Source: Bacillota bacterium (GTDB lineage Bacteria; Bacillota; Clostridia; Tissierellales; Sedimentibacteraceae). Taken from it: 49,684 bases of DNA. The stretch lies in NCBI GenBank assembly GCA_029239575.1, contig JARBUP010000001.1:1-49684 (forward strand), read 5' to 3'. The position numbers and the translations under genes are program-made. The notes under the pieces were generated by a model, which ran no database searches, had not been told where the DNA came from, and saw only the letters and a program-made list of their open reading frames with translations. Positions 5,344-49,684 of this stretch are shown piece by piece; position 1 is the first letter of the stretch, and each line of letters opens with the position of its first letter.

Positions 5344-5354
5344 GTCCCTCCCTA

Positions 5355-6257: not shown

Positions 6258-6269
6258 TTTCTCCACCCC

Positions 6270-7004
6270 TTATATTAATAGTTCTTCTGATAGAAATACT
6301 GGACCATCTTTACATGCTCTTTTATTTCCAATTTTTGTTTCAACAGTGCAACCTAAACAAGCACCTAATCCACATGCCATTCTTCTTTCAAGCGACATAT
6401 AACATGAAACATTTTTAGCTTTACATCCATCAGATATTTTAAACATCATAATTTCAGGGCCACATGTAACTACTGCATCATAATTTTCATAATTTATATA
6501 ATCAGTTACATATCCTTTTTTACCCGAGCTACCGTCTTCAGTGATAACTGTAACTGAATTAGCATATTTTTCAAATTCTTCATTATAATATACACAATCT
6601 TTATATCCTAAATATACATCTGCATTATTTCCTAATTTTTTAGTTAAATATAAAAGAGGTGCGATACCAATCCCGCCCCCAACTACAGCTATTTTTCCGT
6701 TAAGTTCATTTAAATTAAATCCATTGCCCAATGATCCTACTGCTTGGATTTCTTCTTTTTCCCTTAATTTACATATTTGAGTAGTTCCTATACCCTCAAC
6801 CCTATATAAAAATGTAACGGTATTTTCATTTGCATCATTTACACTTATTGGTCTTGGCAATAAAAATGAATTGTCCAATGTTTTAAGCATAAAGAATTGT
6901 CCAGGTTTAATTTCATCTATTTCACTATTAAATTCAATAACAAGTTTATAAATATTATTAAGCACTTTCTCATTGAGAAGTATTTTACTTTTAAGTGTTT
7001 TCAT
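6270..7004 (-). CDS. pyrK: Dihydroorotate dehydrogenase electron transfer subunit
   Basis: PGQF, RPIS, GGGIGIAP, CGP, MACGLGACLGC...C 2Fe-2S motif. Confidence 0.95.
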   Translation of the reverse strand: MKTLKSKILLNEKVLNNIYKLVIEFNSEIDEIKPGQFFMLKTLDNSFLLPRPISVNDANENTVTFLYRVEGIGTTQICKLREKEEIQAVGSLGNGFNLNELNGKIAVVGGGIGIAPLLYLTKKLGNNADVYLGYKDCVYYNEEFEKYANSVTVITEDGSSGKKGYVTDYINYENYDAVVTCGPEIMMFKISDGCKAKNVSCYMSLERRMACGLGACLGCTVETKIGNKRACKDGPVFLSEELLI

Positions 7005-7077
7005 TTTTCCTCCGTTATTTGAGTATCTTCATTAGTTTTCTTATACCCTAATGAATTATACTTAAACAGTTTAAACT

Positions 7078-7941
7078 TTATATATAAGCTCTTATATCGT
7101 CTCTCATCCTTGTCGTTTCTTTTCTTGCACATTCAGCAAAATTACTTTCGCCATCTTCTTCTTTTTTATACGCTAATAATATACCTCTTGATGAATTTAC
7201 AACTGCTCCATTACCATTTATTAAATATGTTGCAATATCTTCTGCTTTTCCTCCCTGTGCTCCGTAGCCAGGTATTAATAAAAACATTGACTTTATTTTA
7301 TTTCTTAGAGAAATTCCTTCTTCATTATTTGTACATCCAACTACTGCCCCTAAAGAACTAAAACCGCATTCCCCCATGTTCTCTTTTGCAAGCTCTTCAA
7401 GTTTTTCACCTACTATTTCATACAAAGGTTCATTATTTTCATCTTTAATATATTGGAAATCTCTTGCACCTTTATTTGATGTACGAACAAGAGCAAAAAT
7501 TCCCTTATCATTATTTTTAAGGTAAGTTATAAAAGGTTCTATACTGTCATTTACTCCCATGTATGGATTTATTGTAACAAAATCAGCTTCAAAATCTCCT
7601 GTGAAATGACCTATAGCATACATCTCAGCTGTTTTAGAAATGTCTCCTCTTTTTATATCTGCTATTGAAATGCAATTTTTTTCCTTAATGTATTTTAATG
7701 TATCTGAATATGCTTTAAGACCTTGCAATCCAAAAGCTTCATAATATGCAATCTGTACTTTATAACAAGCTACTACATCATTTGTACTATCTATTATTTC
7801 TTTATTGAAATTAAAAATTGCTTCTCCAATAGAGTTAAATTTCTGTGCGAAACTTGTTGGAATATAACTGTAATCAGTATCAAGTCCTAAACACACATGT
7901 CCTTTTTCCTCAACTGCTTTATATAATTTATCTACTATCAT
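7078..7941 (-). CDS. pyrF: Orotidine-5'-phosphate decarboxylase
   Basis: CLGLD, DIKRGDI, RTSN, PGYGAQGG, VNSSR motifs. Confidence 0.95.
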   Translation of the reverse strand: MIVDKLYKAVEEKGHVCLGLDTDYSYIPTSFAQKFNSIGEAIFNFNKEIIDSTNDVVACYKVQIAYYEAFGLQGLKAYSDTLKYIKEKNCISIADIKRGDISKTAEMYAIGHFTGDFEADFVTINPYMGVNDSIEPFITYLKNNDKGIFALVRTSNKGARDFQYIKDENNEPLYEIVGEKLEELAKENMGECGFSSLGAVVGCTNNEEGISLRNKIKSMFLLIPGYGAQGGKAEDIATYLINGNGAVVNSSRGILLAYKKEEDGESNFAECARKETTRMRDDIRAYI

Positions 7942-8003
7942 AATATCTCCTTTTATCCTTATAAAAACCGCTGATGAAATTTCATCAGCGTTAAGTAATT
8001 TAT

Positions 8004-8429
8004 CTAATTGCGTTCAAATGCTGTATCACAGTATATGCATCTGTATGTTTTGTTTTCTCTATCTGTTAATTTGAATTTATGTTGTACTTCTTGCTCTATA
8101 GAAGTAATGCATCTTGGATTTTTACATTTAACTATATTTGTAACTTCTGATGGTAGTTCAAGATTTATTTTATTAATTATAACTCCATTGTCTATAACAT
8201 TAATAGTTATGTCCGGATCTATAAATCCAAGCACTGTTAAGTCCATATTAATATTGTCTTCAACTTTTATAATATCTTTTTTTCCTAATTTTTTACTTTT
8301 TGCATTTTTAATTATTGCTACACTACAATCCATTTTATCTAATTTAAGATATTTATATATTTCTAATGCTCTTCCTGCTTTTATATGATCTATTACTAAT
8401 CCCTTATCTACGCTATCTATTTTCAACAT
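8004..8429 (-). CDS. pyrI: Aspartate carbamoyltransferase regulatory subunit
   Basis: G-VIDHI, KDIIK, zinc ligands CKNPRC...YRCIYC. Confidence 0.95.
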   Translation of the reverse strand: MLKIDSVDKGLVIDHIKAGRALEIYKYLKLDKMDCSVAIIKNAKSKKLGKKDIIKVEDNINMDLTVLGFIDPDITINVIDNGVIINKINLELPSEVTNIVKCKNPRCITSIEQEVQHKFKLTDRENKTYRCIYCDTAFERN

Positions 8430-9355
8430 TATTTTTCTACCCCCAGCAATTTCATTATTAAAGCCATTCGTACATACATTCCGAATTTAGCTTGTTTAAA
8501 ATAAGCTGCTCTTGGATCTTTATCAACTTCTACAGATATTTCATTTACCCTTGGAAGTGGATGCAATATAATCATGTCATCTTTTGCTGAGCTTAGTTTT
8601 TCCATGTCCACTATATAGCTATCTTTTAATCTAATATAATCAGCTTCGTTAAAAAATCTTTCTTTTTGTACTCTCGTCATGTATAAAACATCAAGTTCAC
8701 CCATAACATCTTCAAGCTTTTCAACTTCTTTATAATCTATATTATTATTTTTCAATATTTCATGTGTAATATATTCTGGAACCTTCAACTCTTCAGGTGA
8801 TACTAAAACAAATTTTACAGAGCTAAATCTGGATAATGCTTTTATTAATGAATGTACTGTTCTTCCAAATTTTAAATCTCCACAAATGCCTATTGTAAAA
8901 TTATCTAATTTTCCTTTTAAAGATCTAATTGTCAACAAGTCTGTAAGTGTTTGAGTTGGATGCTGATGACCACCATCACCACCATTTATAACGGGCATAT
9001 CCGTTGCCATTGCTGCTACTTTTGGAGCACCTTCTTTTGGATGTCTCATAGCCGCTATATCTGCATAACATGCTATTGTTCTTATTGTATCTGCAACACT
9101 TTCACCTTTTGCAGCTGAACTTGAGTCAGCAGATGAAAATCCCATTATGCTTCCACCAAGTCTTAACATAGCTGCTTCAAAACTTAATCTTGTTCTTGTA
9201 CTTGGTTCGTAAAATAATGTTGCTAACACTTTTCCTTTACAAACATCTGTGTATTCTTCTGGGTTAGCTACTATCTTATCAGCTAAATTTAAAATTTCAT
9301 CTAATTCCTCTAAAGACAAATCATTTGGTTCTATTAAACTTTTTCCTTTTAACAT
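8429..9355 (-). CDS. pyrB: Aspartate carbamoyltransferase catalytic subunit
   Basis: [25 protein letters not shown]. Confidence 0.97.
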
Positions 9356-9362
9356 GCGTCCT

Positions 9363-9393
9363 CCTTATTAGCCTCACTGGACTATTTTAAAGC
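9363..9393 (-). promoter_or_regulatory. PyrR-binding loop overlapping the pyrB ribosome-binding site
   Basis: - strand CTTTAAAAT-AGTCCAGTGAGGCT-AATAAGGAGG; matches the PyrR consensus ARUCCNGNGAGGYU with upstream CUUUAA. Confidence 0.85.
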
Positions 9394-9584
9394 AATATTT
9401 TATTTTTACTTTGTTTGTAGTATAAACTATTCAGCCAAATTTATCCTATTTCTATTCACTTAACAATGCTACATTTTATCTTCATGCTTATATTAATCTA
9501 CATTTTAAAACCTTTAAATTTTACAATTTTACTTTCCTACAACCATTATTTCTTTATTATAGAAAATTGGAACTTTCCTATAAT

Positions 9585-9670
9585 AAAAAAAAGTCTTCCA
9601 AGCATAGCAAGGAAGACGTCATGTCAACGCGTTATAATTCCTTACCAGCCTCTCTGTGCATGTTTAAAGG
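9585..9670 (-). promoter_or_regulatory. PyrR-type transcription attenuator (binding loop plus terminator)
   Basis: CCTTTAAAC-ATGCACAGAGAGGCTG-GTAAGG (9670-9640), then GTCTTCC/GGAAGAC stem with U-tract (9617-9585). Confidence 0.75.
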
Positions 9671-9690
9671 TCTTTTCATTTATTGTACTA

Positions 9691-9719
9691 ATCTTATTAT
9701 ATTTTATATAATAAGTCAA
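9691..9719 (-). promoter_or_regulatory. SigA-type promoter of the pyr operon
   Basis: TTGACT-17 nt-TAAGAT just upstream of the attenuator. Confidence 0.6.
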
Positions 9720-9850
9720 TATGTTTTTTGAATAAAATTAGATAATAGTTTTAATATTCATTGATATAACAAAATTAATATTATATAATGATATTATTTG
9801 CATTAACATTATTAACTTTTTTAGATATATAATAATAGGATGGTGTTTTT

Positions 9851-11218
9851 ATGAATAATTATCTACAGAAAAACATGGTTTTTTATAAAACTATGTTAAT
9901 TATAGCTCTTCCAGTTGTAATACAGCACCTCATAAGTATAGGACTCAATATGGCAGATACTGTAATGGTAAGTGGTCTTGGAGAAAATGCTATATCAGCA
10001 GTAGGATTAGCTAATAGGTTTTATTTTGTATTTTCAGTTATATGTTTTGGCATTTACAGCGGTTCTTCAATTTTTATTGCTCAATATTGGGGAGCAGGAG
10101 ATACAAAAAATATAAAAAAAGTTTTCGGTATTAATTTAGTTATAGGTTCCTTATTATCTGCTTTATTTTCTTTTTTCATTTTTTTATTTCCAGACAAAAT
10201 ATTAAGAATTTTTATTAATGACTCAGAAGTAATAAGTTTAGGTGTTGATTATTTAAAGATAGCTGCATTTTCTTATTTTTTCACATCAATTTCATTTGCA
10301 TTTAGCTTTAGTTCAAGAGCAATACATAAACTTAAATATCCAACTATTGTAAATGCTGTAGCTCTATTAATTAATACCATTTTAAACTATGTATTGATTA
10401 ATGGTTATTATGGTTTTCCTAAACTTGGCGTTCAAGGAGCTGCAATAGCTACAGTAATATCAAGGATATTTGAATTTTTTGCAATGATTTATATCATATA
10501 TAAAGATAAAAATCACCCATTGGCAGGGTCTTTTAAAGATTTTACTTCATGGGACATTCCTTTATTAAAGGATGTAGTAAAAACATCATCACCTGTTATA
10601 TTAGCAGAAATAGCATGGTCAGTAGGTACTTCCGTTTATTTTATAGCATATGGATTTTTGGGTTCTTATGCAATTGCAGTAGTTCAAATTTCAACTACTA
10701 TATCGGACTTTTTCCAAGCTTTATTTTTTGGTTTAGGAAGTTCATGTGCAGTAATGATAGGTAATGAAATAGGAAAAAATAAAATTGATAATGCCTTTGA
10801 TTATAGCAAAAAATTTATTAAAATTACCTTAACTATGAGTATAATATTATCCGCTTTATTGTTTTTATTTAAAGGCAATATAATTCAATTCTTTAATTTA
10901 GAAAAAGATACTATATATTATCTTGATAAAGCTTTAATTGTATTTTCTATATATTTTACTCCTAAAATGTTTTCTTATATGTTTATTATTGGGATACTTA
11001 GAGCTGGCGGAGATACAAAATTTTGCATGGTAATTGATATAGTAAGCATATGGTTTATAGGTATTCCACTATCATTCATAACTGTTTTATATTTTCATCT
11101 ACCTATTCATTTAGTAATGGCAGTTGTTTTCTCTGAAGAAGTTTTAAAGTTATTTATTTTAGTAAATAGATATAAAAGTAAAAAATGGATTAACAATCTT
11201 GTTATTAAATATGATTAA
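9851..11218 (+). CDS. MATE family efflux transporter
   Basis: N-terminal ADTVMV-GLG---SAVG, LGVQGAAIAT, GILRAGGDTK; about 12 hydrophobic segments. Confidence 0.92.
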   Translation: MNNYLQKNMVFYKTMLIIALPVVIQHLISIGLNMADTVMVSGLGENAISAVGLANRFYFVFSVICFGIYSGSSIFIAQYWGAGDTKNIKKVFGINLVIGSLLSALFSFFIFLFPDKILRIFINDSEVISLGVDYLKIAAFSYFFTSISFAFSFSSRAIHKLKYPTIVNAVALLINTILNYVLINGYYGFPKLGVQGAAIATVISRIFEFFAMIYIIYKDKNHPLAGSFKDFTSWDIPLLKDVVKTSSPVILAEIAWSVGTSVYFIAYGFLGSYAIAVVQISTTISDFFQALFFGLGSSCAVMIGNEIGKNKIDNAFDYSKKFIKITLTMSIILSALLFLFKGNIIQFFNLEKDTIYYLDKALIVFSIYFTPKMFSYMFIIGILRAGGDTKFCMVIDIVSIWFIGIPLSFITVLYFHLPIHLVMAVVFSEEVLKLFILVNRYKSKKWINNLVIKYD

Positions 11219-11249
11219 GGAATTTAATTAACAGTCGTAATAAAATATT

Positions 11250-11286
11250 AAAGGAACATATAATTTTGATTTATATGTTCCTTTTT
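11250..11286. terminator. Bidirectional terminator
   Basis: AAAGGAACATATAA/TTATATGTTCCTTT stem between convergent genes. Confidence 0.85.
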
Positions 11287-11307
11287 ATGTATAACTAAAT
11301 TTAAATA

Positions 11308-11529
11308 TTATTCATGGGATTTGTTATTATCATCTGAAACATCTGTAGTACTCACTATTTTAGTTATTCTTCTTTCAACTTCACTTCTTGGGAGCCAAAC
11401 CTGTCTTTGACAAGTAGTACATTTTATTCTAAAATCAGCACCTATTCTTAATATCTCCCAATCATATCCGCCACAAGGATGTTTTTTCTTCAGTTTAACA
11501 ACATCGCCTACATTTAACTTCATTGGCAT
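11308..11529 (-). CDS. DUF951 (YyzM-like) protein
   Basis: GDVV-LKK-HPCG---WEI-R-GADFRIKC--C signature. Confidence 0.9.
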   Translation of the reverse strand: MPMKLNVGDVVKLKKKHPCGGYDWEILRIGADFRIKCTTCQRQVWLPRSEVERRITKIVSTTDVSDDNNKSHE

Positions 11530-11545
11530 GTTATGCCTCCTTTTA

Positions 11546-12157
11546 TTAAATCATTACAGTATTATCTGAATTAGTAATAGTTTCAACTATATCATACATA
11601 TTTGTTATTTGTCCAACTTGAAGTTTCGTTTTAATTTCAAAGAAATCTAAACATGTTCCACATGAAACAATTTTAACTCCACACTCTAATAGCTTTTGTA
11701 AATCATCTATAGAATCAGATCCTTCAGTTGTTAATTTTACTCCAGAATTTAAAAATATTAAAAAACTTGGATATGGTTTTGTTTCTGTTATAGTATAGAT
11801 GAAAGCTTTCATAAGACTTTTGCCTAATTGTTCTGAACCATTTCCCAATATATTTGTTCCTATAACATAACCTTTTGACTGATTTTTATCTATATTTTTA
11901 ATTATTTTTTCGCTTTCAACACATGTTGTACTTTCATTATTATTAAGTTTAGTCATTTGTATATATGTGCCATCTTCTTTATTTTCCACTTCACATTTAT
12001 AGTTTAACTTTGTGCCAAACTTTAACACATTCTGTTTTGAAGTTTCATTATCTACTATTATAGTTATTTCTAACTCACCTGCATCAACTTCATTTTTAGT
12101 TAGTATAACTGGTTGTGGACATGTTTTACCTCTTGCATCTACTATTTTCATTTTCAC
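11546..12157 (-). CDS. yedF: SirA/TusA-like sulfurtransferase, selenium metabolism protein YedF
   Basis: DARG--CPQPVI TusA motif plus DsrE-like domain FLNSGV...CGTCL. Confidence 0.85.
   Translation of the reverse strand: MKMKIVDARGKTCPQPVILTKNEVDAGELEITIIVDNETSKQNVLKFGTKLNYKCEVENKEDGTYIQMTKLNNNESTTCVESEKIIKNIDKNQSKGYVIGTNILGNGSEQLGKSLMKAFIYTITETKPYPSFLIFLNSGVKLTTEGSDSIDDLQKLLECGVKIVSCGTCLDFFEIKTKLQVGQITNMYDIVETITNSDNTVMI
11654..11669. promoter_or_regulatory. parS site (ParB binding), inside yedF
   Basis: TGTTCCACATGAAACA, 1 mismatch to TGTTNCACGTGAAACA. Confidence 0.65.
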
Positions 12158-12168
12158 TTTTCCTCCAA

Positions 12169-12891
12169 TTAGTTTATATAATTATTTATATTGCTATGGT
12201 TGCCATAAAAGTTTTTATATGATAAATAATTTAATATAATATTATTTTCATAGAAAATTTTACTGGATTCAGATTCAATTACCTCATTTACTATTTTGTT
12301 ATTTTGAGTAAAACCTATGACTGGTGAACAAAGTGCGAATATTATGTATAAAACTATTAAAGATTTTACTGCCCCTCCTAATGCTCCAAACATTCTATTT
12401 GCAATATTTAAACCTGGAAGTTTAAATAAAGTATTTATTACATTTGATAATACTATGAGTATTACATAGAATATTAAAAAAGTTATTATAAAACTTAATG
12501 ATCTAATTAACATCATTGTAATGCTGTCTATAAACAGTTTATAAGCATCTACATTTGCTGAAGTACTATAATTGAAGATATTACTTAAAATTGTTTGTAG
12601 CTCAATAGGTAAATGTAAAGCTTCTCTAAATGACATTACTATATCATTTGAGTTCCCTTTTAATATTTCCTTAAACCCTTCTGAGTGTGTTGCAATAAAA
12701 TCATATGTTTTAACATAAAGCTTTGTATTATTGAGTAAAAAATTTTCAGCATAAAAGTAAAACATCTTACTTAAGAAAAATGCTGCAATTATCCCAATTG
12801 TATCAAACAATGTTTTTATGAATCCCCTTCTAAAGCCCTGAAACATTTGGAAACCAACAAATATGATGATTGCGATATCTACTAAATTCAT
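12169..12891 (-). CDS. CvpA (colicin V production) family membrane protein
   Basis: MN-VD-----...GFRRGF N-terminus and NR-FG---G motif; start ATG 12891 after GGAGGAG. Confidence 0.8.
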   Translation of the reverse strand: MNLVDIAIIIFVGFQMFQGFRRGFIKTLFDTIGIIAAFFLSKMFYFYAENFLLNNTKLYVKTYDFIATHSEGFKEILKGNSNDIVMSFREALHLPIELQTILSNIFNYSTSANVDAYKLFIDSITMMLIRSLSFIITFLIFYVILIVLSNVINTLFKLPGLNIANRMFGALGGAVKSLIVLYIIFALCSPVIGFTQNNKIVNEVIESESSKIFYENNIILNYLSYKNFYGNHSNINNYIN

Positions 12892-12915
12892 AACTCCTCC
12901 TTTTAACATATGTAA

Positions 12916-13986
12916 TTATTTAATTTTCCCTTTAATAAATTTATTATTAAATACAATATATATATTTTGACTTTCCACATAAAAATCTTCTATTTTTAAA
13001 CTACCACTATTAAAGAGTTTATGTAAGCTATTGTTTTTGAGCATATAAATTGTATTATCATCATATAAAAATATGTTTTTGTTCAAAACTTTTAAATATC
13101 TTACATTTTCAGAAGTTTTATATATTTCATTAACTTTGCCATCTAAATCATAAGAAATTAATTCCGTCCCATCATTTTGTAGTATATAGATTTTTTCTGT
13201 TTCCTTATTTAATTTATAATCATTTATTTTATTGTAGTTTTTAATTTTCCAAACTAATTTTCCATTTAAATTATAATAATAAATATTTTCCGTACCTATA
13301 GCTAATATATTATTTTTTATTATTTCAGTACCAATTATTACTTCGTTTTCAATTACAACATTCCATAACTCTATGTCATCTAATAAATTAAAATAAATGG
13401 TATTATTAATAGTACCATCCCCTGCATTTAAAGTTGATAAGCAATAAGCTTCTGATTTATCGCTCATAGCTACAGATGTTATTTTATCGATATAATGTTT
13501 ATTCTTAACAACTAACTCCATATTTTCATCTAAAATATATAATGCATCTAAAGTATTTTGTCCATTTTTTTGCTTTGTTATTATGTATGTTTTATTATTT
13601 TCACGTGAAACATTTAAGATTTCTCCAATAACTTCAACAAGTATGAAGCTTTTATTATTTAAATCTATTATTTCTATACTATCTTTTAAACCTCTAAATA
13701 AATACTTATCTGTTAAAAACAACTTATCAGAAAAAACACTGTTATTTCTTTCATAAATTATTTCGCCATTAAAATTGATGAAAATAATTTTTTTTTCATT
13801 ATTTGTTATTATATATTGGTTAAAAAGGTTTGTAAATAAAAGTGAATCTATTTCTATTGTTTCTTGATTTATAATTTCATATACCTTATTTTCATCTTTG
13901 CCAAGTATATAATCTTTGTAAACGGTAATATAAAATAACAGCACAATAGAAATAATTGATATTAAAATATATAATAACTTTTTCAT
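12916..13986 (-). CDS. Membrane-anchored beta-propeller-like protein (DUF5711-like)
   Basis: N-terminal hydrophobic helix, repeated Y--NG-L-W blade motifs; start ATG 13986 after AAGGTG. Confidence 0.5.
   Translation of the reverse strand: MKKLLYILISIISIVLLFYITVYKDYILGKDENKVYEIINQETIEIDSLLFTNLFNQYIITNNEKKIIFINFNGEIIYERNNSVFSDKLFLTDKYLFRGLKDSIEIIDLNNKSFILVEVIGEILNVSRENNKTYIITKQKNGQNTLDALYILDENMELVVKNKHYIDKITSVAMSDKSEAYCLSTLNAGDGTINNTIYFNLLDDIELWNVVIENEVIIGTEIIKNNILAIGTENIYYYNLNGKLVWKIKNYNKINDYKLNKETEKIYILQNDGTELISYDLDGKVNEIYKTSENVRYLKVLNKNIFLYDDNTIYMLKNNSLHKLFNSGSLKIEDFYVESQNIYIVFNNKFIKGKIK
13597..13612. promoter_or_regulatory. parS-like site
   Basis: ATTTTCACGTGAAACA, 2 terminal mismatches to consensus. 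Confidence 0.55.
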
Positions 13987-40017: not shown

Positions 40018-40332
40018 ATGTCTTTAAATATTGAAATTATTAAAACTCCTGATAATGATTATATTGAGATTAAGCCAATGGGAGAAGTAGATATATTTAC
40101 TTCTCCTGAATTTAAAAATAAATTAATTGACTTAATTGATAATAATAATGTAAACATTATCATAGATGGAGAAGGACTTGAATATATTGACAGCACTGGA
40201 CTTGGAGTATTAATGGGTATTTATAAAAAAATGCAGGAAAATAAATTGAAAATTAAAATAAAAAATCTTAAACCTAATATATACAAATTGTTTGATATAA
40301 CAGGTTTAAATAAGATTTTTGATATTCAATAA
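40018..40332 (+). CDS. rsbV: Anti-anti-sigma factor (STAS)
   Basis: GEVD--T-P, YIDSTGLG with phospho-acceptor Ser, F-ITGL. Confidence 0.88.
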   Translation: MSLNIEIIKTPDNDYIEIKPMGEVDIFTSPEFKNKLIDLIDNNNVNIIIDGEGLEYIDSTGLGVLMGIYKKMQENKLKIKIKNLKPNIYKLFDITGLNKIFDIQ

Positions 40333-40340
40333 GGTGAATT

Positions 40341-40709
40341 ATGGAAATAGTAAAATTAGAAATACCAAAAAAATCTGAGTATATAAGCACTATAAGACTT
40401 ACAACTTCTGCTTTATCAAATATAATAGGATTTAATATAGATGATATAGAAGATATTAAAGTTATAATTTCTGAAATATGTACTTTTTTTATAAGTAATA
40501 TTAAATTAAATGAAAAACCTCTTTTATTTGAATTTATTTCAGAAGTAAATTCATTAAATGTTACAGTAACTGATTTAAATGATGGTGAAATTACTGAAGA
40601 AAATAAAAAGAACAGTGAAATGTGTATATTAATAATAGAAAGTTTAGCAGATGATTATAATATTAATTTAGTAGAAAATAAATTGAACTTTAAAAAGTTT
40701 TTAAAATAA
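40341..40709 (+). CDS. rsbW: RsbW-like anti-sigma factor with degenerate kinase motifs
   Basis: IP---EY---IRL--S------GF--DDIEDIKV--SE N-terminal half; position between rsbV and sigB. Confidence 0.75.
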   Translation: MEIVKLEIPKKSEYISTIRLTTSALSNIIGFNIDDIEDIKVIISEICTFFISNIKLNEKPLLFEFISEVNSLNVTVTDLNDGEITEENKKNSEMCILIIESLADDYNINLVENKLNFKKFLK

Positions 40710-40732
40710 TATCTTGAATAGGCGTTGATAAT

Positions 40733-41494
40733 ATGAATGAAGTAATACAAAACTTAAAAACAATTAAAAATCAAGATTTATTTATTCAATATAATAAACA
40801 TAGGGATATTGAGATTAGAAATAAAATATTCGAAAAGTATAGATATATGCCCGAAATTATTTCTAAAAAGTATAACAATAAAGGTATTGAATATGATGAT
40901 ATTTATCAAATAGCTTGTGTTGGATTAATTTATGCCATAGAGAGATTTGATATTAATAGGGGCTTTGAGTTTACAAGCTTTGCAACACCAACTATATTAG
41001 GGGAAGTAAAAAAATACTTTCGCGATAAAGGTTGGGCTATTAAAATACCACGTAAAATCCAAGAGGTTTCTAAAAAAGTAAATGAGTACAGTATAACTTT
41101 AAGTAATGAACTTCACCGTACCCCTTCAATTAAAGAGTTAGCGGAATATATAAGTTGTACAGAAGAAGAAGTTTTAGAAGCATTTGAGGCAGGAAAAATG
41201 TTTACATCACAATCATTGGATTTAAAATTTGAATCTAATAGTGATGATAGTGAAACAACTTTAATGGATTTAGTGGGTTATGATGATAAACATTTTATGA
41301 AAATAGAAGATAATGATTTTATAAATAAATCACTTGATAAATTAAATGATTTAGAAAAACAAATTATAATAAGTAGATATTTTGAAAATAAAACTCAAAG
41401 TGAGATAGCTAAAGAATTAAATATATCACAAATGACAGTTTCAAGAATAGAAAAGAAAATTTTGGAAAAATTAAGAATTGAATATGAAAAATAA
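40733..41494 (+). CDS. sigB: SigB-type RNA polymerase sigma factor
   Basis: FATPTILGE-K-YFRDK-W-I--PR-IQE, TQ-EIA--L-ISQM-VSR. Confidence 0.85.
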   Translation: MNEVIQNLKTIKNQDLFIQYNKHRDIEIRNKIFEKYRYMPEIISKKYNNKGIEYDDIYQIACVGLIYAIERFDINRGFEFTSFATPTILGEVKKYFRDKGWAIKIPRKIQEVSKKVNEYSITLSNELHRTPSIKELAEYISCTEEEVLEAFEAGKMFTSQSLDLKFESNSDDSETTLMDLVGYDDKHFMKIEDNDFINKSLDKLNDLEKQIIISRYFENKTQSEIAKELNISQMTVSRIEKKILEKLRIEYEK

Positions 41495-41511: not shown

Positions 41512-44331
41512 ATGAAGAATAAAAGCAAATATTTTATAATTGGTATTGTAATTATTTTGTTTTTAGTATTAAGTTCTTTTAGCGGTATAGTTAAGTATAT
41601 TACTGATTTTATGTGGTTTAATGAAGTTGGTTATACTCAAACTTTTTTAACAAAAATTAAATCTCAGTTTTTTATAGGGGTTCCTATTTTTATAATACTT
41701 ACAGTTTTTCTATATTTGTTTTTAAATAGGCTAAAGAAAAAATACTATGCAGAATCAGATATAATAGATACTGAACATGATAAAACAGTAAGATTTTGGA
41801 TTAAAATAATATCTGCAGCAATTAGTTTAGTAACAACTTTAAGTATTGTATCCAGATTGTGGTTTGAAATACTGCAGTACATAAATGCAGGAACTTTTAA
41901 CGTAACAGACCCTATTTTTAAAAATGACATAAGTTTTTATGTATTTAACTTACCATTAATAAATACATTAGTTAATTTTATAATAGACATTTTATTTATG
42001 CTTATAGTTGTAACTACTTCGTTTTATGCTTACTTAGCTTTAAGAAGCAGTATAAAAAGTGTTACTAATCAAATTGATAATATAACACAATTAAATCAAG
42101 TTGATTTTAGTAAAATATTAAATAAAAAATTTGCTACACAGGTTTTGAATAATATTTCTATAATAGGTTCTTTAATATTCATATTTATAGGAATTAGATT
42201 TTATTTAAGAAGCTATGATTTATTGTATTCACAAGTAGGTAGAGTCTTTGGTGCAGGATTTACAGATATTAATATAACATTAAATTTGTTTAGAATTCTT
42301 TCCATAGGATGTATAGTTTCAGCTATTACATTTTTTATAGGAGCAAGGAAAAAGAATATTAAATATGCTTTAACTTTACCTGCAAGTTTAATTGTTATTT
42401 CAGTAATTGGTACTGGTTTAAGCGGTGGAATTGAAAAGTTTATAGTTGAACCAGATCAATTATCTAAAGAAACTGAATATATGAAATATAGCATAAGCAG
42501 TACACAAAAGGCTTATGGATTGGATACAGTTCAAAAAATACAATTTCCTGCTGAAGATAATTTAACTAAAGAAGATATTGAAAATAATAGTGAAGTTATT
42601 GAAAATATAAGAATTAATGATCAAGAACCATTAATTCAAGTTTATAATCAATTACAAGGTATAAGACCTTATTATGTGTTCAATGATGTTGATGTTGATA
42701 GATATGTTATAAATGGACAATACAAACAGGTTTTCTTGTCTGCAAGGGAATTAGATCATAATAGACTTAATGAACAAGCAAAAACATGGGTTAATCAATA
42801 TTTAAAATATACTCATGGTTATGGTATAACTTTATCTCCTGTAGATAGAGTTACAGCACAAGGCCAGCCAGAAATGATTATAAAAAACATACCACCAACC
42901 ACTTCTACTGATATAAAATTAAGTAGGCCAGAAATATATTTTGGTGAATCTGCTAATGATTATGTAATTTTAAATACAGATGAAAAGGAATTTGATTATC
43001 CTTCAGGTTCTGATAATGTTGAAACTGTTTATAATGGAAAAGCAGGAATAAAATTAAATTTAATTAATAGATTACTTTTCTCAATTAGAGAAGCAAGTAC
43101 AAAATTATTAATTTCAACTAATATAAATTCTGAAAGTAAAATTGTTATAAACAGAAATATATATCAAAGAGTTGAAGAAATTGCCCCATTTTTATATTAT
43201 GACCCAGATGCTTATATAGTTTCAAATCAAGAAGATGGTAAATTATATTGGATTATAGAAGGATTTACAGTTAGTAACAGATATCCTTATTCAATGGCAA
43301 CAGAAAACTTTATTGAAGGTATGAAAGTAAATTACATAAGAAATTCAGTTAAAGTTGTTATAGATGCATATGATGGATCAATTAATTATTATATTACTGA
43401 TGGAACTGACCCTATAATTAATACTTACGATAAAATATTTACAGATTTGTTTAAACCAATGAGTGAAATGCCTCAAGGGATAAAAGATCATATTAGATAT
43501 TCACAATCATATTTTGACATTCAATCCGATTTATATAGATTATATCATATTGAAAATCCAACAGTATTTTTTGGAAGAGAAGATTATTGGGATTTTTCAA
43601 AAGAAAAATATATGGATAGAGAAGGGGATGCTGTAGGATCAAGTTATGTTATGTTTAAACTACATGGAGAAGAAGATGTTGAATTTTTACTTACAACACA
43701 ATATTCACCACAAAATAAAGATAACATGATAGCTATGCTTGCTGCACGAAATGATGGTGAAAATTATGGTGAATTAATTTTATATGAATTTCCAAAAACA
43801 AAAAGTATACCAGGACCAAATATGATCGAAACTAAAATTGACCAAGATACTTTTATTTCATCTCAATTAACTCTCTGGGGTCAGGCAGGATCATCCATAT
43901 TAAGGGGAAATACACTTGTAGTTCCTATAGAAGATTCACTATTATATGTTGAACCTATTTATTTAAAATCTGATACTGCAAGCAACTTCCCAGAAATGAA
44001 AATGGTTGTTGTTTCATATGCAAATGAAATAATTATGGAAACAACACTTGATAAAGCATTAAAAAGAATTTTTGGTACTGAAGAAGATAAAGAAGAATTA
44101 CCAGAGCCACAAATCCCTGGTGGTATTGCAAATCAAACAGTTAATGAATTAGTAACTTCTGCAAATGAATTGTATAAAAAAGCAGATGAATCATTGAAAA
44201 GCGGTGATTGGGCTTCATATGGTAATTATATAAATCAATTAAAAGATACATTGAACCAATTAAATACAATTATAAATAATGGTACAGTAAATAACCAAAC
44301 ACAAACAACTGAAGAACAAACAGCACAATAA
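41512..44331 (+). CDS. UPF0182 family membrane protein
   Basis: D--WF-EVGY, DPIF--D-SFY-F-LP, D-DRY, YTHGYG, NYIRNSVK--IDAY-G, LLYVEPIY. Confidence 0.92.
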   Translation: MKNKSKYFIIGIVIILFLVLSSFSGIVKYITDFMWFNEVGYTQTFLTKIKSQFFIGVPIFIILTVFLYLFLNRLKKKYYAESDIIDTEHDKTVRFWIKIISAAISLVTTLSIVSRLWFEILQYINAGTFNVTDPIFKNDISFYVFNLPLINTLVNFIIDILFMLIVVTTSFYAYLALRSSIKSVTNQIDNITQLNQVDFSKILNKKFATQVLNNISIIGSLIFIFIGIRFYLRSYDLLYSQVGRVFGAGFTDINITLNLFRILSIGCIVSAITFFIGARKKNIKYALTLPASLIVISVIGTGLSGGIEKFIVEPDQLSKETEYMKYSISSTQKAYGLDTVQKIQFPAEDNLTKEDIENNSEVIENIRINDQEPLIQVYNQLQGIRPYYVFNDVDVDRYVINGQYKQVFLSARELDHNRLNEQAKTWVNQYLKYTHGYGITLSPVDRVTAQGQPEMIIKNIPPTTSTDIKLSRPEIYFGESANDYVILNTDEKEFDYPSGSDNVETVYNGKAGIKLNLINRLLFSIREASTKLLISTNINSESKIVINRNIYQRVEEIAPFLYYDPDAYIVSNQEDGKLYWIIEGFTVSNRYPYSMATENFIEGMKVNYIRNSVKVVIDAYDGSINYYITDGTDPIINTYDKIFTDLFKPMSEMPQGIKDHIRYSQSYFDIQSDLYRLYHIENPTVFFGREDYWDFSKEKYMDREGDAVGSSYVMFKLHGEEDVEFLLTTQYSPQNKDNMIAMLAARNDGENYGELILYEFPKTKSIPGPNMIETKIDQDTFISSQLTLWGQAGSSILRGNTLVVPIEDSLLYVEPIYLKSDTASNFPEMKMVVVSYANEIIMETTLDKALKRIFGTEEDKEELPEPQIPGGIANQTVNELVTSANELYKKADESLKSGDWASYGNYINQLKDTLNQLNTIINNGTVNNQTQTTEEQTAQ

Positions 44332-44333
44332 AG

Positions 44334-44371
44334 AAAAGGCAAATCTGAATAAAAACAGATTTGCCTTTTTT
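44334..44371. terminator. Bidirectional terminator
   Basis: AAAAGGCAAATCTG/CAGATTTGCCTTTT stem with U-tracts on both strands. Confidence 0.9.
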
Positions 44372-44413
44372 ATATTATTTAATTGATAATAGAATTATTA
44401 TTTTATATAAAAT

Positions 44414-45745
44414 TTATTTAACTATATTTTTATTGTTTTTATTATAAAAAACTACCGCCAATATAACAATTGCTATACAGAAACTAATGTAGTAAATGAA
44501 AAGTGGATTTTGCATACCACCATAAAGTATAAATAAAGATCCAAGTATAGCTAAAACAGGTACTATATAACCTTTTAATTTATTTTTAATTTCACCTTTT
44601 GCAGTTAATTTTATAACTGATATATATAATAAAATAAATCCAAGATAATTTAATACTATTGATATTTCTGATATATCTGAATTAGGTAAAAGGTTATATT
44701 TTTGAGTTATATAATGGATTACCATCCATAATAGTGTTATAAAATAAGTCAATATGCCGGAATTAACAGGAACGCTGTATTTTTCTGAAACAGAATCATA
44801 TTTACTACTACCTGGGAACATATTTCTAATAGACAATGCATATGGAAGTCTTATTAAACCTATTATTAAACCATTGACTGTTCCTATTACCGAAATGACA
44901 ACAAAGGTCAAAACCGCTTTTGCACCTAATGAACCAAAAATTCCAATGGCAGCTTCATTAACGTGTGAATCGCCTAATAATATAATTTTTTCTGGTCCTA
45001 AATAAGTTGAAATACCTACGAAATATAAAACATAAATCAATAAAATAATTATAGGAGAAATTACTAATGCAATTGGAAGATTTCTTTTGCTATTTTTAAT
45101 TTCATGGCCTATTGATGTAGAAACTATCCAACCATCAAAAGAAAATGCTATAGGAGCAATGGCTGCTACCCAACCTGTTCCACCTATTGTACTTAAGCTT
45201 TCTTGTATAACAGGTTTTGGGTCACCGAAAGCTAAACCTAAAAATGCGATTAAAATCAGTGGGATTAATTTTATTATAGTAGAAGCATTTTGTAAATAAC
45301 CACCAAATTTGTAAGATAAAATGTTTATTAAAAACAAAATGGTCATTACTACAGTACCTATTATAACTTGTAACTCAAGAGTTGATTCTATACCAAATAA
45401 AATCGTCGTATAAATTCCTATAACCCATGCAACAATGGCTGTTATAGTTGGTAAGTATACAAGAGTCTGGAACCATCCAAATGCACAAGCTACTGATTTG
45501 TTCCAAAATTCTTCAGCATACGTAATGACCCCTCCAGCTTCATCTGTTCGTGATGCAAGTTCTGAAATAGCAAGACTACCAAAAATTATGCTAAATGCTG
45601 CAATAATAAATACTAAAACTCCTTGAATTATATTGCCATTTGTATAAATTAATACGTTATCACTTTTAAAAAATATTCCTGAACCGATTACGATACCTAC
45701 TATCATTGCAATAGTAGTAAATAAACTATATTTACGTTCTATCAT
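44414..45745 (-). CDS. APC-family amino acid permease
   Basis: VG-VIGSGIF, AGG---YA, F-FDGW, E-KN-KRNLP; multiple TM helices. Confidence 0.9.
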   Translation of the reverse strand: MIERKYSLFTTIAMIVGIVIGSGIFFKSDNVLIYTNGNIIQGVLVFIIAAFSIIFGSLAISELASRTDEAGGVITYAEEFWNKSVACAFGWFQTLVYLPTITAIVAWVIGIYTTILFGIESTLELQVIIGTVVMTILFLINILSYKFGGYLQNASTIIKLIPLILIAFLGLAFGDPKPVIQESLSTIGGTGWVAAIAPIAFSFDGWIVSTSIGHEIKNSKRNLPIALVISPIIILLIYVLYFVGISTYLGPEKIILLGDSHVNEAAIGIFGSLGAKAVLTFVVISVIGTVNGLIIGLIRLPYALSIRNMFPGSSKYDSVSEKYSVPVNSGILTYFITLLWMVIHYITQKYNLLPNSDISEISIVLNYLGFILLYISVIKLTAKGEIKNKLKGYIVPVLAILGSLFILYGGMQNPLFIYYISFCIAIVILAVVFYNKNNKNIVK

Positions 45746-45859
45746 ATTATCACCTTTTTATTATTTTTTAGTGCTTGTAGTATATTACTAAATAAGACAA
45801 ATTACAAGACAAATTTGTTTTTAATATAAAAACAATTTATAAAAATATTAAGTAAAAAA

Positions 45860-45888
45860 TTGACAATTTAGTCATATTAAATTAAAAT
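45860..45888 (+). promoter_or_regulatory. SigA promoter of VOC gene
   Basis: TTGACA-17-TAAAAT. Confidence 0.65.
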
Positions 45889-45918
45889 TGTTTTAAATAC
45901 TATTATAGAGAGGTTATT

Positions 45919-46287
45919 ATGAAATTTAAATTCAATCATTTTAATTTTAATGTACTTGATTTACAAAAAAGTATGGATTTTTACAAGGAATCCTTAGGAT
46001 TAATAGAAGTAAAAAGAAAAGAAGCAGCAGATGGCAGTTTTATTTTAGTATATTTAGGAGATAAAGAATCAGATTTTACTTTAGAATTAACATGGTTAAA
46101 AGAAAGAACTGAAAAATATGATCTTGGAGATATGGAATACCACCTTGCTTTTTTAGTAGATAATTATGAAGAAGCATACAAAAAACATATGGAAATGGGT
46201 TGTATCGCATTTGTAAATGAATCAATGGGTATTTACTTTATAACAGATCCTGATGGATATTGGATAGAGATAGTTCCTATAAGATAA
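45919..46287 (+). CDS. VOC family protein (lactoylglutathione lyase-like)
   Basis: H---NV-DL--S--FY---LG, LELT, HLAF, FI-DPDGY-IE. Confidence 0.88.
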   Translation: MKFKFNHFNFNVLDLQKSMDFYKESLGLIEVKRKEAADGSFILVYLGDKESDFTLELTWLKERTEKYDLGDMEYHLAFLVDNYEEAYKKHMEMGCIAFVNESMGIYFITDPDGYWIEIVPIR

Positions 46288-46300
46288 TTATATAATATGT

Positions 46301-46332
46301 AAAGTCAGACAATATTTTTGTCTGATTTTTTT
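46301..46332 (+). terminator. Intrinsic terminator
   Basis: TCAGACAA/TTGTCTGA stem followed by a T run. Confidence 0.85.
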
Positions 46333-46355
46333 ATATAAATTATAATAATGTAACA

Positions 46356-46384
46356 TTTACAACATACTAAATGTAATATATAAT
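46356..46384 (+). promoter_or_regulatory. SigA promoter of the ATPase gene
   Basis: TTTACA-17-TATAAT. Confidence 0.55.
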
Positions 46385-46460
46385 GCAAAATATAGATATT
46401 GATAATTACAATTGTTGAGCTATATAAACATATGAAAAAATATAATTATTTGGAGTAAAG

Positions 46461-49040
46461 ATGACTAATAAAGATATTAAAATAGTTGTAACAGGGGATA
46501 TAACTATCAATTTATTGCAATGGAAAACATATATAAGCAATATAAAAGAATACAGTTATAAAACATATCCGCAATTTCATAGAAACATAAAACTTGGTGA
46601 AGACTTTATTTTATCTAAACTTGTTGAATTATCTACTGAAGCAAATATTATTTCGCCGAAAATAATATTTGAAAACAATAGAATAAATGAGGACAGTATA
46701 GTTTCTACTGTTGAATTAAATTTATTTCCTATGATTAGCGGTAAAAATAATAAAAATAAGGTATATAGGGTAAAAGAATTTCTTGGATTTACTGGACCTG
46801 ATATTGGAATTCCAAAACAATACCCTATAATAAATGATGATTCTGAAGCTGATATAATAATTTTAGATGATGAGAACAATGGTTTTAATAATAGCGAAGA
46901 GTTTTGGCCTAAAGCCTTAAAAACAAAAGATAAATCCCCATTAATTATTTATAAAACTAATAACCTTGGAGAATCAAACAGCCTTTGGAACCATATTGAG
47001 AAAAATCATCTAAATAAAACTATTGTAGTAATCAATGCAGATGATTTGCGTTCAAAAGGTGTTAATATAAGCAAAAGGCTATCATGGGAAAGAACAGCTT
47101 TAGATTTTGTTTGGCAGATGAATAATAATCCAAACTTAGTTTCACTTTCTAAATGCAACCATTTAATAATTCCATTTGGTGTTGAAGGTGCAATACATTA
47201 TAAAAATAAAGGTAAGTCTGAATCAGAATTATATTTTCTTACATATGAGTTTGAAGGCGGATTTATTAAAGAAGAACAAGGTAAAATGTATGGTCTCACA
47301 TCTTGTTTTGTAGCAGGTCTTGTTAAAAACATTGTATCAGGTATCATAGGCAATGATAATTTGGACAGTTACATAAGTGAAGGAATACGTGAAGGCATTG
47401 TTGCTGCACAAAAATACTTCATTCATGGTTTTGGGAATAATGTTCTTAATTGCAGTTTTCCTGATCCTTCAATATTTACTGAAAAGGAAAATGACTTTAT
47501 TTATAAGGAGCATATACAGAATGTAAATATTAGAAATACAAAAAATTTAAATTGCAGGTCATGTTGGTACATCATTAAAGACAAAAATTCTTTTAACTTG
47601 GCGGAAATTGCATATGAAATAGTAAAATATGGAGAAAAAAGTGCACTTAAATTCATGCCAATAGCACAGTTTGGAAATTTGAAAACAGTGGACAGAACGG
47701 AAATAGAAGGTTATAGAAGTATCAATAATTTAATGTCAGAATATATTTCATCTAAAAACACTGTAAGACCATTATCAATTGCAGTTTTTGGAACACCTGG
47801 CTCAGGAAAGTCATTTGGAGTAACGGAAGTAGCATCAAGCATAGCTCCTAATTTAATTAAGAAATTAGATTATAATTTATCCCAATTTCAATCTGTTGAT
47901 GATTTAATAGCTGCATTTCATAAAGTTAGGGATTATACACTTAAAGGAAGAATTCCATTAGTGTTTTTTGATGAATTTGATAGTTATTTTGGTAAAAAAT
48001 TAGGATGGCTTAAATATTTCCTTGCACCTATGCAGGATGGGGTGTTTAGAGAGGGGGATGCTTTACATCCAATTGGTAAGGCAATATTTGTTTTTGCAGG
48101 TGGAACTAGCAATACATTTAAAAAATTCAGTGGTGAAGATATAATAAGTGAGGATGAAAAAATAGAATTCCTTAGTGAGTTTCAAAACTCTAAGGGACCA
48201 GATTTCATAAGCAGATTAAGAGGTTATGTGAACATATTAGGGCCTAATCAAACTGATGAAAACTGGGATCAATTATTTATTATTAGAAGAGCAATGCTTT
48301 TGAGATCTCTCCTTGAAAGGAAAATGCCTCATTTAATCAATTTAAATGATGAAGCTCAAATTGATAATGGAGTTTTAAGGGCTCTTTTAAAAATTTCAAA
48401 ATATAAGCATGAATCAAGATCGATGGAAGCAATTTTAGAAATGAGTATGTTAAATGATGCTAAAAAGTGGGAGCAAGCCCATCTGCCTTCAAAGGAGCAA
48501 TTAAAGCTACATGTGAATGAAGAGCAGTTTTCTCGCCTTTTGATGCAGGAAGAATTCTATAGTGAAAAGGTTGAAAAGCTTGCCAAAGATCTTCAAAAAA
48601 CACACATAAATATTAATAATGATTTAAAAGATCATATAATTAAAGATTGTAAAGACATTAGTGAGGAAGATAAAATTTATATACAGCATCAAGTAAGGCA
48701 TATCCCAAAGGCTTTACAAAAAGTTAATTATGAGGTTATATCTGTTAATGAAAAACCTGAATCTATTAAATTCACTGAAAAGGAATTAGATATTCTTGCA
48801 GAATATGAACATAAAAGAAGCTCCCTTGAAAAAAAGGAATCAGAATGGGTATATGACAAAACTTTAGATGTTGAAAATAAAAAACAGCCTTATCTATTGT
48901 CTTATGATAAATTGCCTGATGGATATAAGAATAAAATTAAAAATTATATAAGTGCATGGCCAGAAATTTTAGCTAATTCTAATTTTAAAATAGAAAGATT
49001 AAAATTTCTATGTAATTGTGAATCACAACTTTATATGTAG
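46461..49040 (+). CDS. P-loop (AAA-like) ATPase with C-terminal RyR-like repeats
   Basis: Walker A GTPGSGKS, Walker B VFFDEFD; C-terminal LAEYEHKR...WVY----D---K-QPYL--YD-LP resembles the RyR repeat pattern. Confidence 0.75.
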   Translation: MTNKDIKIVVTGDITINLLQWKTYISNIKEYSYKTYPQFHRNIKLGEDFILSKLVELSTEANIISPKIIFENNRINEDSIVSTVELNLFPMISGKNNKNKVYRVKEFLGFTGPDIGIPKQYPIINDDSEADIIILDDENNGFNNSEEFWPKALKTKDKSPLIIYKTNNLGESNSLWNHIEKNHLNKTIVVINADDLRSKGVNISKRLSWERTALDFVWQMNNNPNLVSLSKCNHLIIPFGVEGAIHYKNKGKSESELYFLTYEFEGGFIKEEQGKMYGLTSCFVAGLVKNIVSGIIGNDNLDSYISEGIREGIVAAQKYFIHGFGNNVLNCSFPDPSIFTEKENDFIYKEHIQNVNIRNTKNLNCRSCWYIIKDKNSFNLAEIAYEIVKYGEKSALKFMPIAQFGNLKTVDRTEIEGYRSINNLMSEYISSKNTVRPLSIAVFGTPGSGKSFGVTEVASSIAPNLIKKLDYNLSQFQSVDDLIAAFHKVRDYTLKGRIPLVFFDEFDSYFGKKLGWLKYFLAPMQDGVFREGDALHPIGKAIFVFAGGTSNTFKKFSGEDIISEDEKIEFLSEFQNSKGPDFISRLRGYVNILGPNQTDENWDQLFIIRRAMLLRSLLERKMPHLINLNDEAQIDNGVLRALLKISKYKHESRSMEAILEMSMLNDAKKWEQAHLPSKEQLKLHVNEEQFSRLLMQEEFYSEKVEKLAKDLQKTHININNDLKDHIIKDCKDISEEDKIYIQHQVRHIPKALQKVNYEVISVNEKPESIKFTEKELDILAEYEHKRSSLEKKESEWVYDKTLDVENKKQPYLLSYDKLPDGYKNKIKNYISAWPEILANSNFKIERLKFLCNCESQLYM

Positions 49041-49222
49041 TTATAATTTTTTTAGTGTTTAGGGGTAAGTTTAAAATAAATTTGCCCTTATATATTAAAT
49101 TATGAAGTATTTGAACTATTTTATATTCTTTTTATTTATTTCACTTATAACATTAGTATATATAGAATTTATATGACATGCTGATTAAACTTCTAAGGGT
49201 AAAAAAATAAAAACAAAAATGC

Positions 49223-49491
49223 TTGACATTAAAAAACAAGTATGGTAAAGTAATGTTCCTGTCGCAAAAGGCAGGTTTAAAAATATAAGAAATAAAGGGT
49301 TGACAATATCAAATAGATATGATAAACTCACTAAACTATCTCTAAGGGGTAGCAAGAAAAAAATAAGTAAAAATATAGTTGACAGAAATAAGTAAGTATG
49401 GTATACTTTCATTCCTGTCACAAACGACAGAAAAAAATAAAAAAAATAAGTAAAAAAAACACTTGACAAATATCGACAAACACGATATACT
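49223..49491 (+). promoter_or_regulatory. Four tandem SigA promoters of rRNA operon
   Basis: TTGACA at 49223, 49300, 49379, 49463, each with a 17-nt spacer to TAAAGT, TAAACT, TATACT, TATACT. Confidence 0.9.
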
Positions 49492-49641
49492 AATTAAGCT
49501 CTCAAAAAGAGCGATACAAAAAAAGTGAACATAGACAATAAAACAGCATAAGAAACCTTTGAAAGTTCTAAATTAAATTTGAACAAAAAAAGTAAAACAA
49601 CAACAATGAAGCTAAGCGTAAGCTTGAGCGTCAGGAAAATA

Positions 49642-49684
49642 TTAAACGAGAGTTTGATCCTGGCTCAGGACGAACGCTGGCGGC
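49642..49684 (+). rRNA. rrs: 16S rRNA, 5' end (truncated by window)
   Basis: AGAGTTTGATCCTGGCTCAGGACGAACGCTGGCGGC from 49649. Confidence 0.98.

Follow-up and report, generated by a model that had tools for sequence, protein, structure and literature searches.

A possible repurposed immune receptor in the Bacillota window

We analyzed a 49,684-nucleotide stretch from a Bacillota bacterium of the Sedimentibacteraceae (assembly GCA_029239575.1, contig JARBUP010000001.1, positions 1 to 49,684; hereafter the window) and focused on a gene near its right end that encodes a three-domain ATPase of 859 aa. We propose that this protein is an orphaned immune receptor that has been repurposed as a stand-alone ATPase stress switch, gated by metal or thiols or by a sugar phosphate, and we give this reading a probability of roughly 40%. 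It is suggested by three features of the family branch to which the gene belongs: there are no partner genes, most pocket residues of the ryanodine receptor (RyR) module are lost, and a new four-cysteine motif is present. The loss of pocket and partners at the level of a whole branch and the coupling of the cysteines are the new observations made here. The features that carry the argument are the following.

46461..49040, + strand: gene for the 859-aa protein, consisting of a PfkB-fold domain (most likely a pseudokinase), an AAA+ ATPase and an RyR module best read as Repeat12-type
48570..48740, + strand: RyR repeat 1 (residues 704-760), reduced, its GW/HP loop missing across the whole family
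48777..48998, + strand: RyR repeat 2, with the pocket positions H784, S787, L802, Q809, K825 and I826
47553..47564, + strand: CxxC (C365, C368) in the linker between kinase-fold domain and ATPase, branch-specific
49011..49019, + strand: C-terminal CxC (C851, C853), which disappears along with the linker CxxC

The branch was defined in a FastTree tree of 111 rows, which was calculated from the kinase and ATPase columns with the RyR columns excluded; open reading frames (ORFs) of less than 600 aa or with less than 500 aligned residues were omitted. Fifty rows, mostly from Bacillota and including the window gene, split off with a support of 100. Clostridia, Bacilli and Sporomusa are mixed in the tree.

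The RyR module and its ligand pocket

An earlier note, made from the DNA letters only, had described two tandem degenerate RyR-like units. Profile and structure matches confirmed their RyR character. The Pfam RyR model (PF02026) matches residues 776-845 only (E 8e-6, 26.4 bits at a cut-off of 27.4; a second scan was above the cut-off), and pairwise BLAST between the two repeats gave no signal (E 2.4). The family profiles of both repeats align at 98.8% with an E of 1.4e-16, and the predicted model matches Repeat12 of human RyR3 (9ls7) over 174 columns (E 2.5e-5). The two repeats are thus best read, on the basis of the models, as one Repeat12-type module and not as two separate units.

RyR domains are found among bacteria, archaea, and viruses according to PMC7399828, where their function is given as unknown. 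The view of the earlier note that prokaryotic RyR repeats have little functional characterization is nevertheless outdated, as two 2026 preprints report phage RyR domains that bind or cleave 2'/3'-cyclic ADP-ribose (cADPR) (10.64898/2026.05.28.727677, 10.64898/2026.06.04.730250). In these texts, the pocket residues are given as H75, W78, H100, and D117 for RyDEP (10.64898/2026.05.28.727677) and as H129, W132, K147, H154, K170, and D171 for RyR Tad (10.64898/2026.06.04.730250). In RyR Tad the exchange W132A abolished activity and paired mutants bound about 100-fold more weakly (10.64898/2026.06.04.730250), and 6 of 8 phage homologues tested in the RyDEP preprint bound cADPR, with cleavage by none of the 8 (10.64898/2026.05.28.727677). 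The altered motifs that had been noticed in the window protein, HKRS for HxRW (784-787), EWVYD for GW-YG (795-799), and QP for HP (809-810), are real and occupy the same positions that the phage proteins use for cADPR binding. In an ungapped register with the Tad and RyDEP sequences, the window protein retains two of the six Tad binding residues (H784 and K825), whereas the W, H, and D positions are replaced (S787, Q809, I826).

This change is largely a property of the branch. Among proteins with a repeat 2, the combination of His, an aromatic residue, and Asp is found in 100 of the 129 distant members and in 0 of the 120 branch members, none of which has the pocket Asp. The Trp at position 787 behaves differently: it is retained in 85/120 branch members and 95/129 others, so that its loss in the window protein is a local one. 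A sister protein of 95% identity is missing seven pocket-loop residues. Deletions in this loop also recur elsewhere in the Bacillota branch (loci L006/L007 of Clostridium tyrobutyricum, L001, L015, L017, L018, and L024, and proteins P0034 and P0049).

It might be that the protein still reads a cADPR- or ADP-ribose-type signal through its altered pocket, with the signal coming from a TIR protein elsewhere in the genome or from NAD turnover. The retained H784 and K825, the conserved fold of the module and the binding of cADPR by the phage homologues mentioned above would fit to this, but the replaced W, H, and D positions and the weak binding of the paired Tad mutants speak against it. In addition, no TIR_2, ThsB_TIR or DUF4062 was found in the own genome (87% complete), and TIR_2 is not in excess among carriers (11 of 32 carrier genomes compared to 16 of 40 in an unmatched control from the window's genus). 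We therefore consider this explanation unlikely.

Gene neighborhoods inside and outside the branch

For the neighborhood analysis, 80 metagenome loci were retained from 348. Around distant family members there are recurrent neighbors. A Pfam scan of 64 cluster-chosen distant neighbors yielded TIR_2 at 11 loci, DUF4062 at at least 7, SLATT_1 at 5, and TrkA_N together with RyR at 9, which amounts to 27 loci in total; none of these was found by Pfam in the 103 of 184 close neighbors that were scanned. Profiles of the TIR, SLOG-like, SLATT, and RCK-RyR partners matched at 0 of 53 loci inside the branch compared to 46 of 67 outside, whereby the latter number is partly circular since the profiles were built from those distant loci. 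Likewise, a downstream gene on the same strand within 100 bp is present at 2/49 close and 29/53 distant loci. The partners are also not supplied in trans, as far as the carriers were searched: there is no second RyR match in 32 carrier genomes and the SLOG-like partner family occurs in 1 of 33. The SLOG label of this partner domain is itself weak, with no PDB match below an E of 0.28 and Pfam YAcAr, YpsA, and DprA each matching 2 of 13 members (E 0.003-0.02).

Operon-like sets around the family gene were observed at L094 (~3548-13478) as well as at L068, L107, L067, and L069. They combine the family gene with SLOG-like genes, a membrane RCK(TrkA_N)-RyR channel-like gene, a TIR fusion, and WD40/TPR STAND-type genes, and are candidates for a Thoeris-like system with host RyR receptors. 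At L067 (1873-4461, - strand) an 863-aa protein with RelA_SpoT, a weak LSDAT (SLOG) match, and RyR lies beside the RCK-RyR gene. The conflict role suggested by the earlier note thus finds support for distant members that have TIR, SLOG-like, SLATT, and RCK-RyR neighbors, but fits the branch of the window gene poorly, with its 0/53 loci and no TIR excess.

In the scanned portion of the close neighbors there is a tendency toward redox and detoxification functions (HxlR, azoreductase-type flavodoxin, nitroreductase, aldo-keto reductase, DsbA). In a rough control, such functions account for 12/516 non-seed ORFs compared to 24/2782 in the own genome and 0/383 in distant loci, which is a weak lead.

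A branch-specific four-cysteine motif

The earlier note had missed two features, a kinase fold without its catalytic motif (see below) and cysteines that are specific for the branch. Among 117 scorable branch proteins, 103 possess both the linker CxxC and the C-terminal CxC, 10 have neither, and 4 are discordant. Double loss corresponds to 5-7 events on the tree. Outside the branch, CxxC was found at that site in 1/148 and CxC in 0/148 proteins. The coupled loss suggests that the two motifs, although 485 residues apart, may form a single four-cysteine site, which in the cytoplasm of an anaerobe could most simply be a metal clamp.

According to the repurposing reading, the ancestor would have been a receptor in a Thoeris-like operon. 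Its RyR pocket would have sensed an ADP-ribose signal produced by a TIR protein, and its ATPase would have had a SLATT or RCK-RyR channel effector as target. In the branch, one metal bound by all four cysteines would fasten the C-terminus, which follows the RyR module, to the linker between kinase fold and ATPase, so that the ATPase is held in one state. The clamp might be released when the thiols are oxidized or alkylated, when the metal is lost, or when the pseudokinase binds a sugar phosphate, and the protein could then oligomerize and turn over ATP. As the pore loop is missing (see below), the ATPase would remodel or scaffold a partner instead of threading protein. A wider proposal is that bacteria possess host-side RyR-gated AAA+ receptors in Thoeris-like operons with SLOG/SLATT and RCK-RyR partners and that one Bacillota branch was domesticated, swapping the cADPR pocket for a four-cysteine clamp based on metal or thiols and working on its own as a stress switch; we regard this as tentative and put it below even odds by some distance.

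Distribution, selection, and alternative explanations

The family search yielded 1115 matches among 7996 scored candidates and 2032 clusters at E <= 1e-30. Atlas clusters come from Chloroflexota, Acidobacteriota, Pseudomonadota, Methanobacteriota, and some Ascomycota, and the only database label of family proteins is "RyR domain-containing." Culturable carriers include Clostridium tyrobutyricum and Neobacillus niacini. In 32 hand-chosen proteins, the RyR module was found to be missing or doubled or the architecture to be extended by TIR (P0188, P0204), NUDIX (P0167), or TPR (P0206); five relatives have a SLOG-like tail as judged by eye. At L087 and L097, RyR-less members of 655 aa are followed by a conserved 420-aa gene. 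In phage records, a tblastn search with the relative P0240 matched 2 of 50,697, in the RyR part only, and viral contigs gave at least one long and at least two short matches. A 118-kb IMG/VR contig (L122:8001-10019) encodes a divergent long family member without the pocket residues.

As had been supposed, the gene is accessory. It is carried by 1 of 36 congeners and by 3 of 299 other genomes of the class, of which one copy contains stops (G279) and one is only 42% identical. Such a distribution could also be that of a one-gene anti-phage or conflict NTPase, in which the pseudokinase or the cysteine site senses infection and the ATPase halts growth without any TIR signal, possibly by draining ATP or by jamming a host complex. 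Its occurrence in about 1% of class genomes, neighbor families shared by no more than 9 of 40 close loci, the mixing of Clostridia, Bacilli, and Sporomusa in the tree, split copies, and the kinship with TIR/SLOG-linked members all argue for this. On the other hand, the protein evolves slowly under strong purifying selection and has no evident effector domain. NCBIfam does not match it, and no family of the PADLOC library of 2023 does so at E <= 1; PADLOC on 150 of the 184 close neighbors gave nine matches at 1e-10; most of these concern generic domains, and two look like type I specificity subunits. A one-gene defense role is a serious possibility, though we would not bet on it.

In the branch, the pooled ratio of nonsynonymous to synonymous substitution rates (dN/dS; 10/15 pairs, dS <1.5) is lowest in the ATPase (0.056), followed by the kinase fold (0.14) and the RyR module (0.18); the corresponding values outside the branch are 0.075, 0.15, and 0.14 (7/9 pairs). 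The low RyR value indicates that the module was maintained in the branch while its pocket changed. A general relaxation of the RyR module was considered and is not supported by these short-range values (0.18 vs. 0.14). Over long range, RyR identity drops faster in the branch, with distance ratios to the ATPase of 3.7 and 2.8 compared to 1.7 and 1.6 (uncorrected for saturation). These values also bear on the assumption that the gene is a decaying passenger without current function. For decay one could name the lost pocket and kinase residues, the split copies at 4/51 close loci, the stops in G279, and the lack of a usable dS pair for the window gene itself in the selection test. The branch-wide dN/dS values argue against it, as do the presence of K450, D504, E505, R585, and R653 in 121/121 branch members and the sister P0002, which is 98% identical in the ATPase and 90% in repeat 1. 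Decay is the explanation that we consider the least probable.

Several points weigh against a repurposed receptor, besides the partial circularity of the partner count. Purifying selection continues to act on the RyR module, and together with the Trp in 85/120 branch members this might mean that the ligand has changed instead. The cysteines, whose closeness is hypothetical, fall into low-confidence parts of both structural models. That partners were lost and not gained rests on the midpoint rooting of the FastTree tree. The redox classes were picked after they had been seen and are typical of accessory regions. Finally, the TIR, NUDIX, and TPR fusions in relatives as well as the patchy distribution and the split copies would also fit a defense gene.

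The kinase-fold and ATPase domains

46473..47510, + strand: ribokinase/PfkB-fold domain, residues ~5-350 (Foldseek, VIA, Atlas)
47292..47303, + strand: GLTS (278-281) at the site of the GAGD anion hole, Ser replacing the catalytic Asp (weak profile alignments)
47658..48545, + strand: AAA+ ATPase (residues 400-695) that has a pre-sensor-1 hairpin and lacks the GYVG pore loop of ClpB (second model, VIA)
47790..47813, + strand: Walker A, GTPGSGKS (444-451), K450 in 270/270
47958..47975, + strand: Walker B, LVFFDE (FFDE at 502-505), D504 and E505 each in 268/269
48210..48224, + strand: SRLRG (584-588) with arginine finger R585, conserved in 269/269 and aligned with ClpB PEFLNR
48411..48419, + strand: sensor-2-like ExR (E651, R653), GxR outside the branch; R653 in 269/269

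The first full-length model (mean predicted local distance difference test, pLDDT, of 67) was better at the N-terminus and poor in the ATPase part, and was used for the N-terminus only. The resemblance to PfkB/ribokinase folds that had been seen in the first strand holds for the predicted structure: PfkB kinases were matched by Foldseek with an E of 1e-7 and by VIA with a Z of 18.8 (root-mean-square deviation 4.8, 282 aligned), and the Atlas comparison gave TM values of 0.54-0.62 to PfkB clusters. Profile alignments with two sets of PfkB kinases, 13 of the HldE type and 11 others, both bring GKMYGLTS to lie on DxTGAGD (weak, probability 7-9%). GAGD, the PfkB anion hole with the catalytic Asp, is present in the fetched kinases and in none of the 270 family proteins; 10 of the 270 have Asp at position 281, and the window protein has Ser281. 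For this reason, the domain is most likely a pseudokinase, as far as can be judged from the alignments. The sugar-site motifs are kept outside the branch (D17 in 130/137, G47 in 133/140) and mostly altered inside (D17 in 5/120, G47 in 18/121), where N17 and mostly E47 are found instead.

The earlier note's ATPase features were recovered as listed: the ORF encodes intact Walker A and B motifs, and R585 of SRLRG aligns with the ClpB-type finger. The ExR/GxR motif is presumably sensor-2, and E651 is common to the branch. The second model (residues 362-859, pLDDT 92) gave tied VIA scores (Z 14.0-14.8) with CLPB/Skd3, ClpA-D2, FleQ, and ClpB NBD2, the highest being CLPB and ClpA-D2 with 14.8, so that no AAA+ clade was assigned. 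A profile alignment to the three Clp D2 domains of the same genome (probability 36%, E 4e-4) brings the Arg finger and the hairpin that precedes strand 4 into register, and GAPPGYVG has no counterpart. A modelled trimer of the ATPase domain with ATP scored 0.01, which is no evidence either way. We infer that the ATPase is probably active and non-threading.

Given the top structural matches (CLPB, ClpA-D2, ClpB NBD2, and PfkB kinases) and the ten proteins with Asp281, the protein could alternatively work as a disaggregase of the ClpB/Skd3 type, or its kinase fold could be an active sugar kinase joined to an ATPase. The missing GYVG loop, the lack of GAGD in the whole alignment, Ser281, and the lack of a recurring sugar-pathway neighbor among close loci speak against this, and we find it hard to credit, a little more so than a retained cADPR readout.

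The gene and its locus

46301..46329, + strand: terminator-like hairpin 3' of the glyoxalase gene (sequence scan)
46356..46384, + strand: sigma-70-like promoter match, 11/12 (consensus match only)
49060..49090, + strand: 14-bp stem 3' of the stop codon, a possible terminator without T run (not called by the terminator scan)
49223..49684, + strand: four TTGACA promoter matches and the 16S rRNA start (49649), a neighbor outside the system

The ORF at 46461-49040 (+ strand) was verified. It lies about 14 kb downstream of dnaA within a dnaA-gyrA-sigma factor-UPF0182 region and is single copy in the own genome. An independent contig (X10 record 2, window 45893-49053) spans both the glyoxalase gene and the ATPase gene. 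The hairpin, the promoter match, and the stem agree with the monocistronic organization proposed before, as judged by sequence; sigma-70 matches are, however, frequent in the window (43 compared to 28.6 in shuffles). The position just before an rRNA operon also holds, with what we take to be the 16S 5' signature from 49649; the 36-nt fragment at the window end gave no Rfam match. In the window (41512-49684) the order is permease, glyoxalase, ATPase gene, and rRNA operon, unlike in 8 congeners, where the glyoxalase gene is at most one gene away from UPF0182, any permease lies beyond it, and the fetched DNA contains no 16S start. A functional link to the rRNA operon was dropped, as neither the ATPase gene nor a 16S start is present around the glyoxalase gene in these congeners. 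Directly after gyrA (40018-41494), there are genes for a STAS anti-anti-sigma factor, an anti-sigma kinase-like protein, and a sigma factor (SigB-like cluster), as in congeners. In another family of the same order (L164:8683-11608, G053), a glyoxalase-like gene with 38% identity to that of the window precedes the family gene with a 4-bp gap, and L032 likewise has a glyoxalase-superfamily neighbor. The G+C content (GC) of the gene equals that of the genome (0.291 each), and its third-position value (GC3, 0.195) is only slightly above that of five neighbors (0.117-0.166), so that there is no clear sign of recent transfer.

Comparison with known systems

The PfkB-AAA+-RyR architecture is not described in the consulted parts of PMC7399828, PMC7159879, PMC9503650, and 10.64898/2025.12.03.692087, nor was it found in full-text literature searches, which did not extend to preprint supplements; a 2015 comparative paper on SLOG/SLATT systems may mention such fusions.

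With PfkB/ribokinase kinases including HldE/RfaE heptose-7-phosphate kinase, the family shares the fold and retains GDxxxD and GG, and its N-terminus aligns colinearly with HldE over 275 columns; these kinases carry GAGD, whereas the family does not. As HldE (E 0.0053) and other PfkB kinases (E 0.0037) score alike against the family profile, descent from HldE is only a lead. The ATPase shares the AAA+ fold, pre-sensor-1 hairpin, Arg finger, and sensor-2 Arg with ClpB/ClpA D2, human CLPB/Skd3, sigma-54 activators, and torsin. Unlike ClpB/Hsp100 disaggregases, it has a single ATPase domain and no GYVG pore loop; the identity to these proteins is 12-16%.

Thoeris combines a TIR sensor with a signal-binding effector, in type VII with a SLATT effector (10.64898/2025.12.03.692087), and TIR, SLOG-like, SLATT, and channel genes lie beside the distant relatives. 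Thoeris places the TIR synthase beside the effector, whereas the branch of the window gene has no such partners at any of its 53 loci. The terms "RyR," "AAA," and "ribokinase" are missing from the main text of that preprint, as far as available.

RyDEP (mycobacteriophage DyoEdafos gp78) and RyR Tad (Pectobacterium phage vB_PatP_CB1 gp68) have the same module of a reduced repeat 1 and a full repeat 2, and in a three-sequence search the family profile matched RyR Tad with an E of 1e-17 and RyDEP with 2e-13. They are small viral sponges or glycosidases, whereas the window protein is encoded by the host, has an ATPase in the same chain and retains two of six pocket residues. The distant family members point to host receptors with a phage-type cADPR pocket, some of them channels. 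A natural control for these exists in the Bacillota branch, which has the same ATPase, lacks the pocket Asp and the partners, and has newly coupled cysteines; pairing one member of each kind makes both signal reading and repurposing directly testable. Ryanodine receptors share the tandem-repeat fold (the family profile matches RyR2 with an E of 4e-35 and 3nrt with 1e-15); they are channels, whereas the family protein is none and the position of the adenine-stacking Trp is Ser in the window protein. Host RyR receptors would also be relevant to a long-standing question, the way in which cADPR affects the ryanodine receptors of animals.

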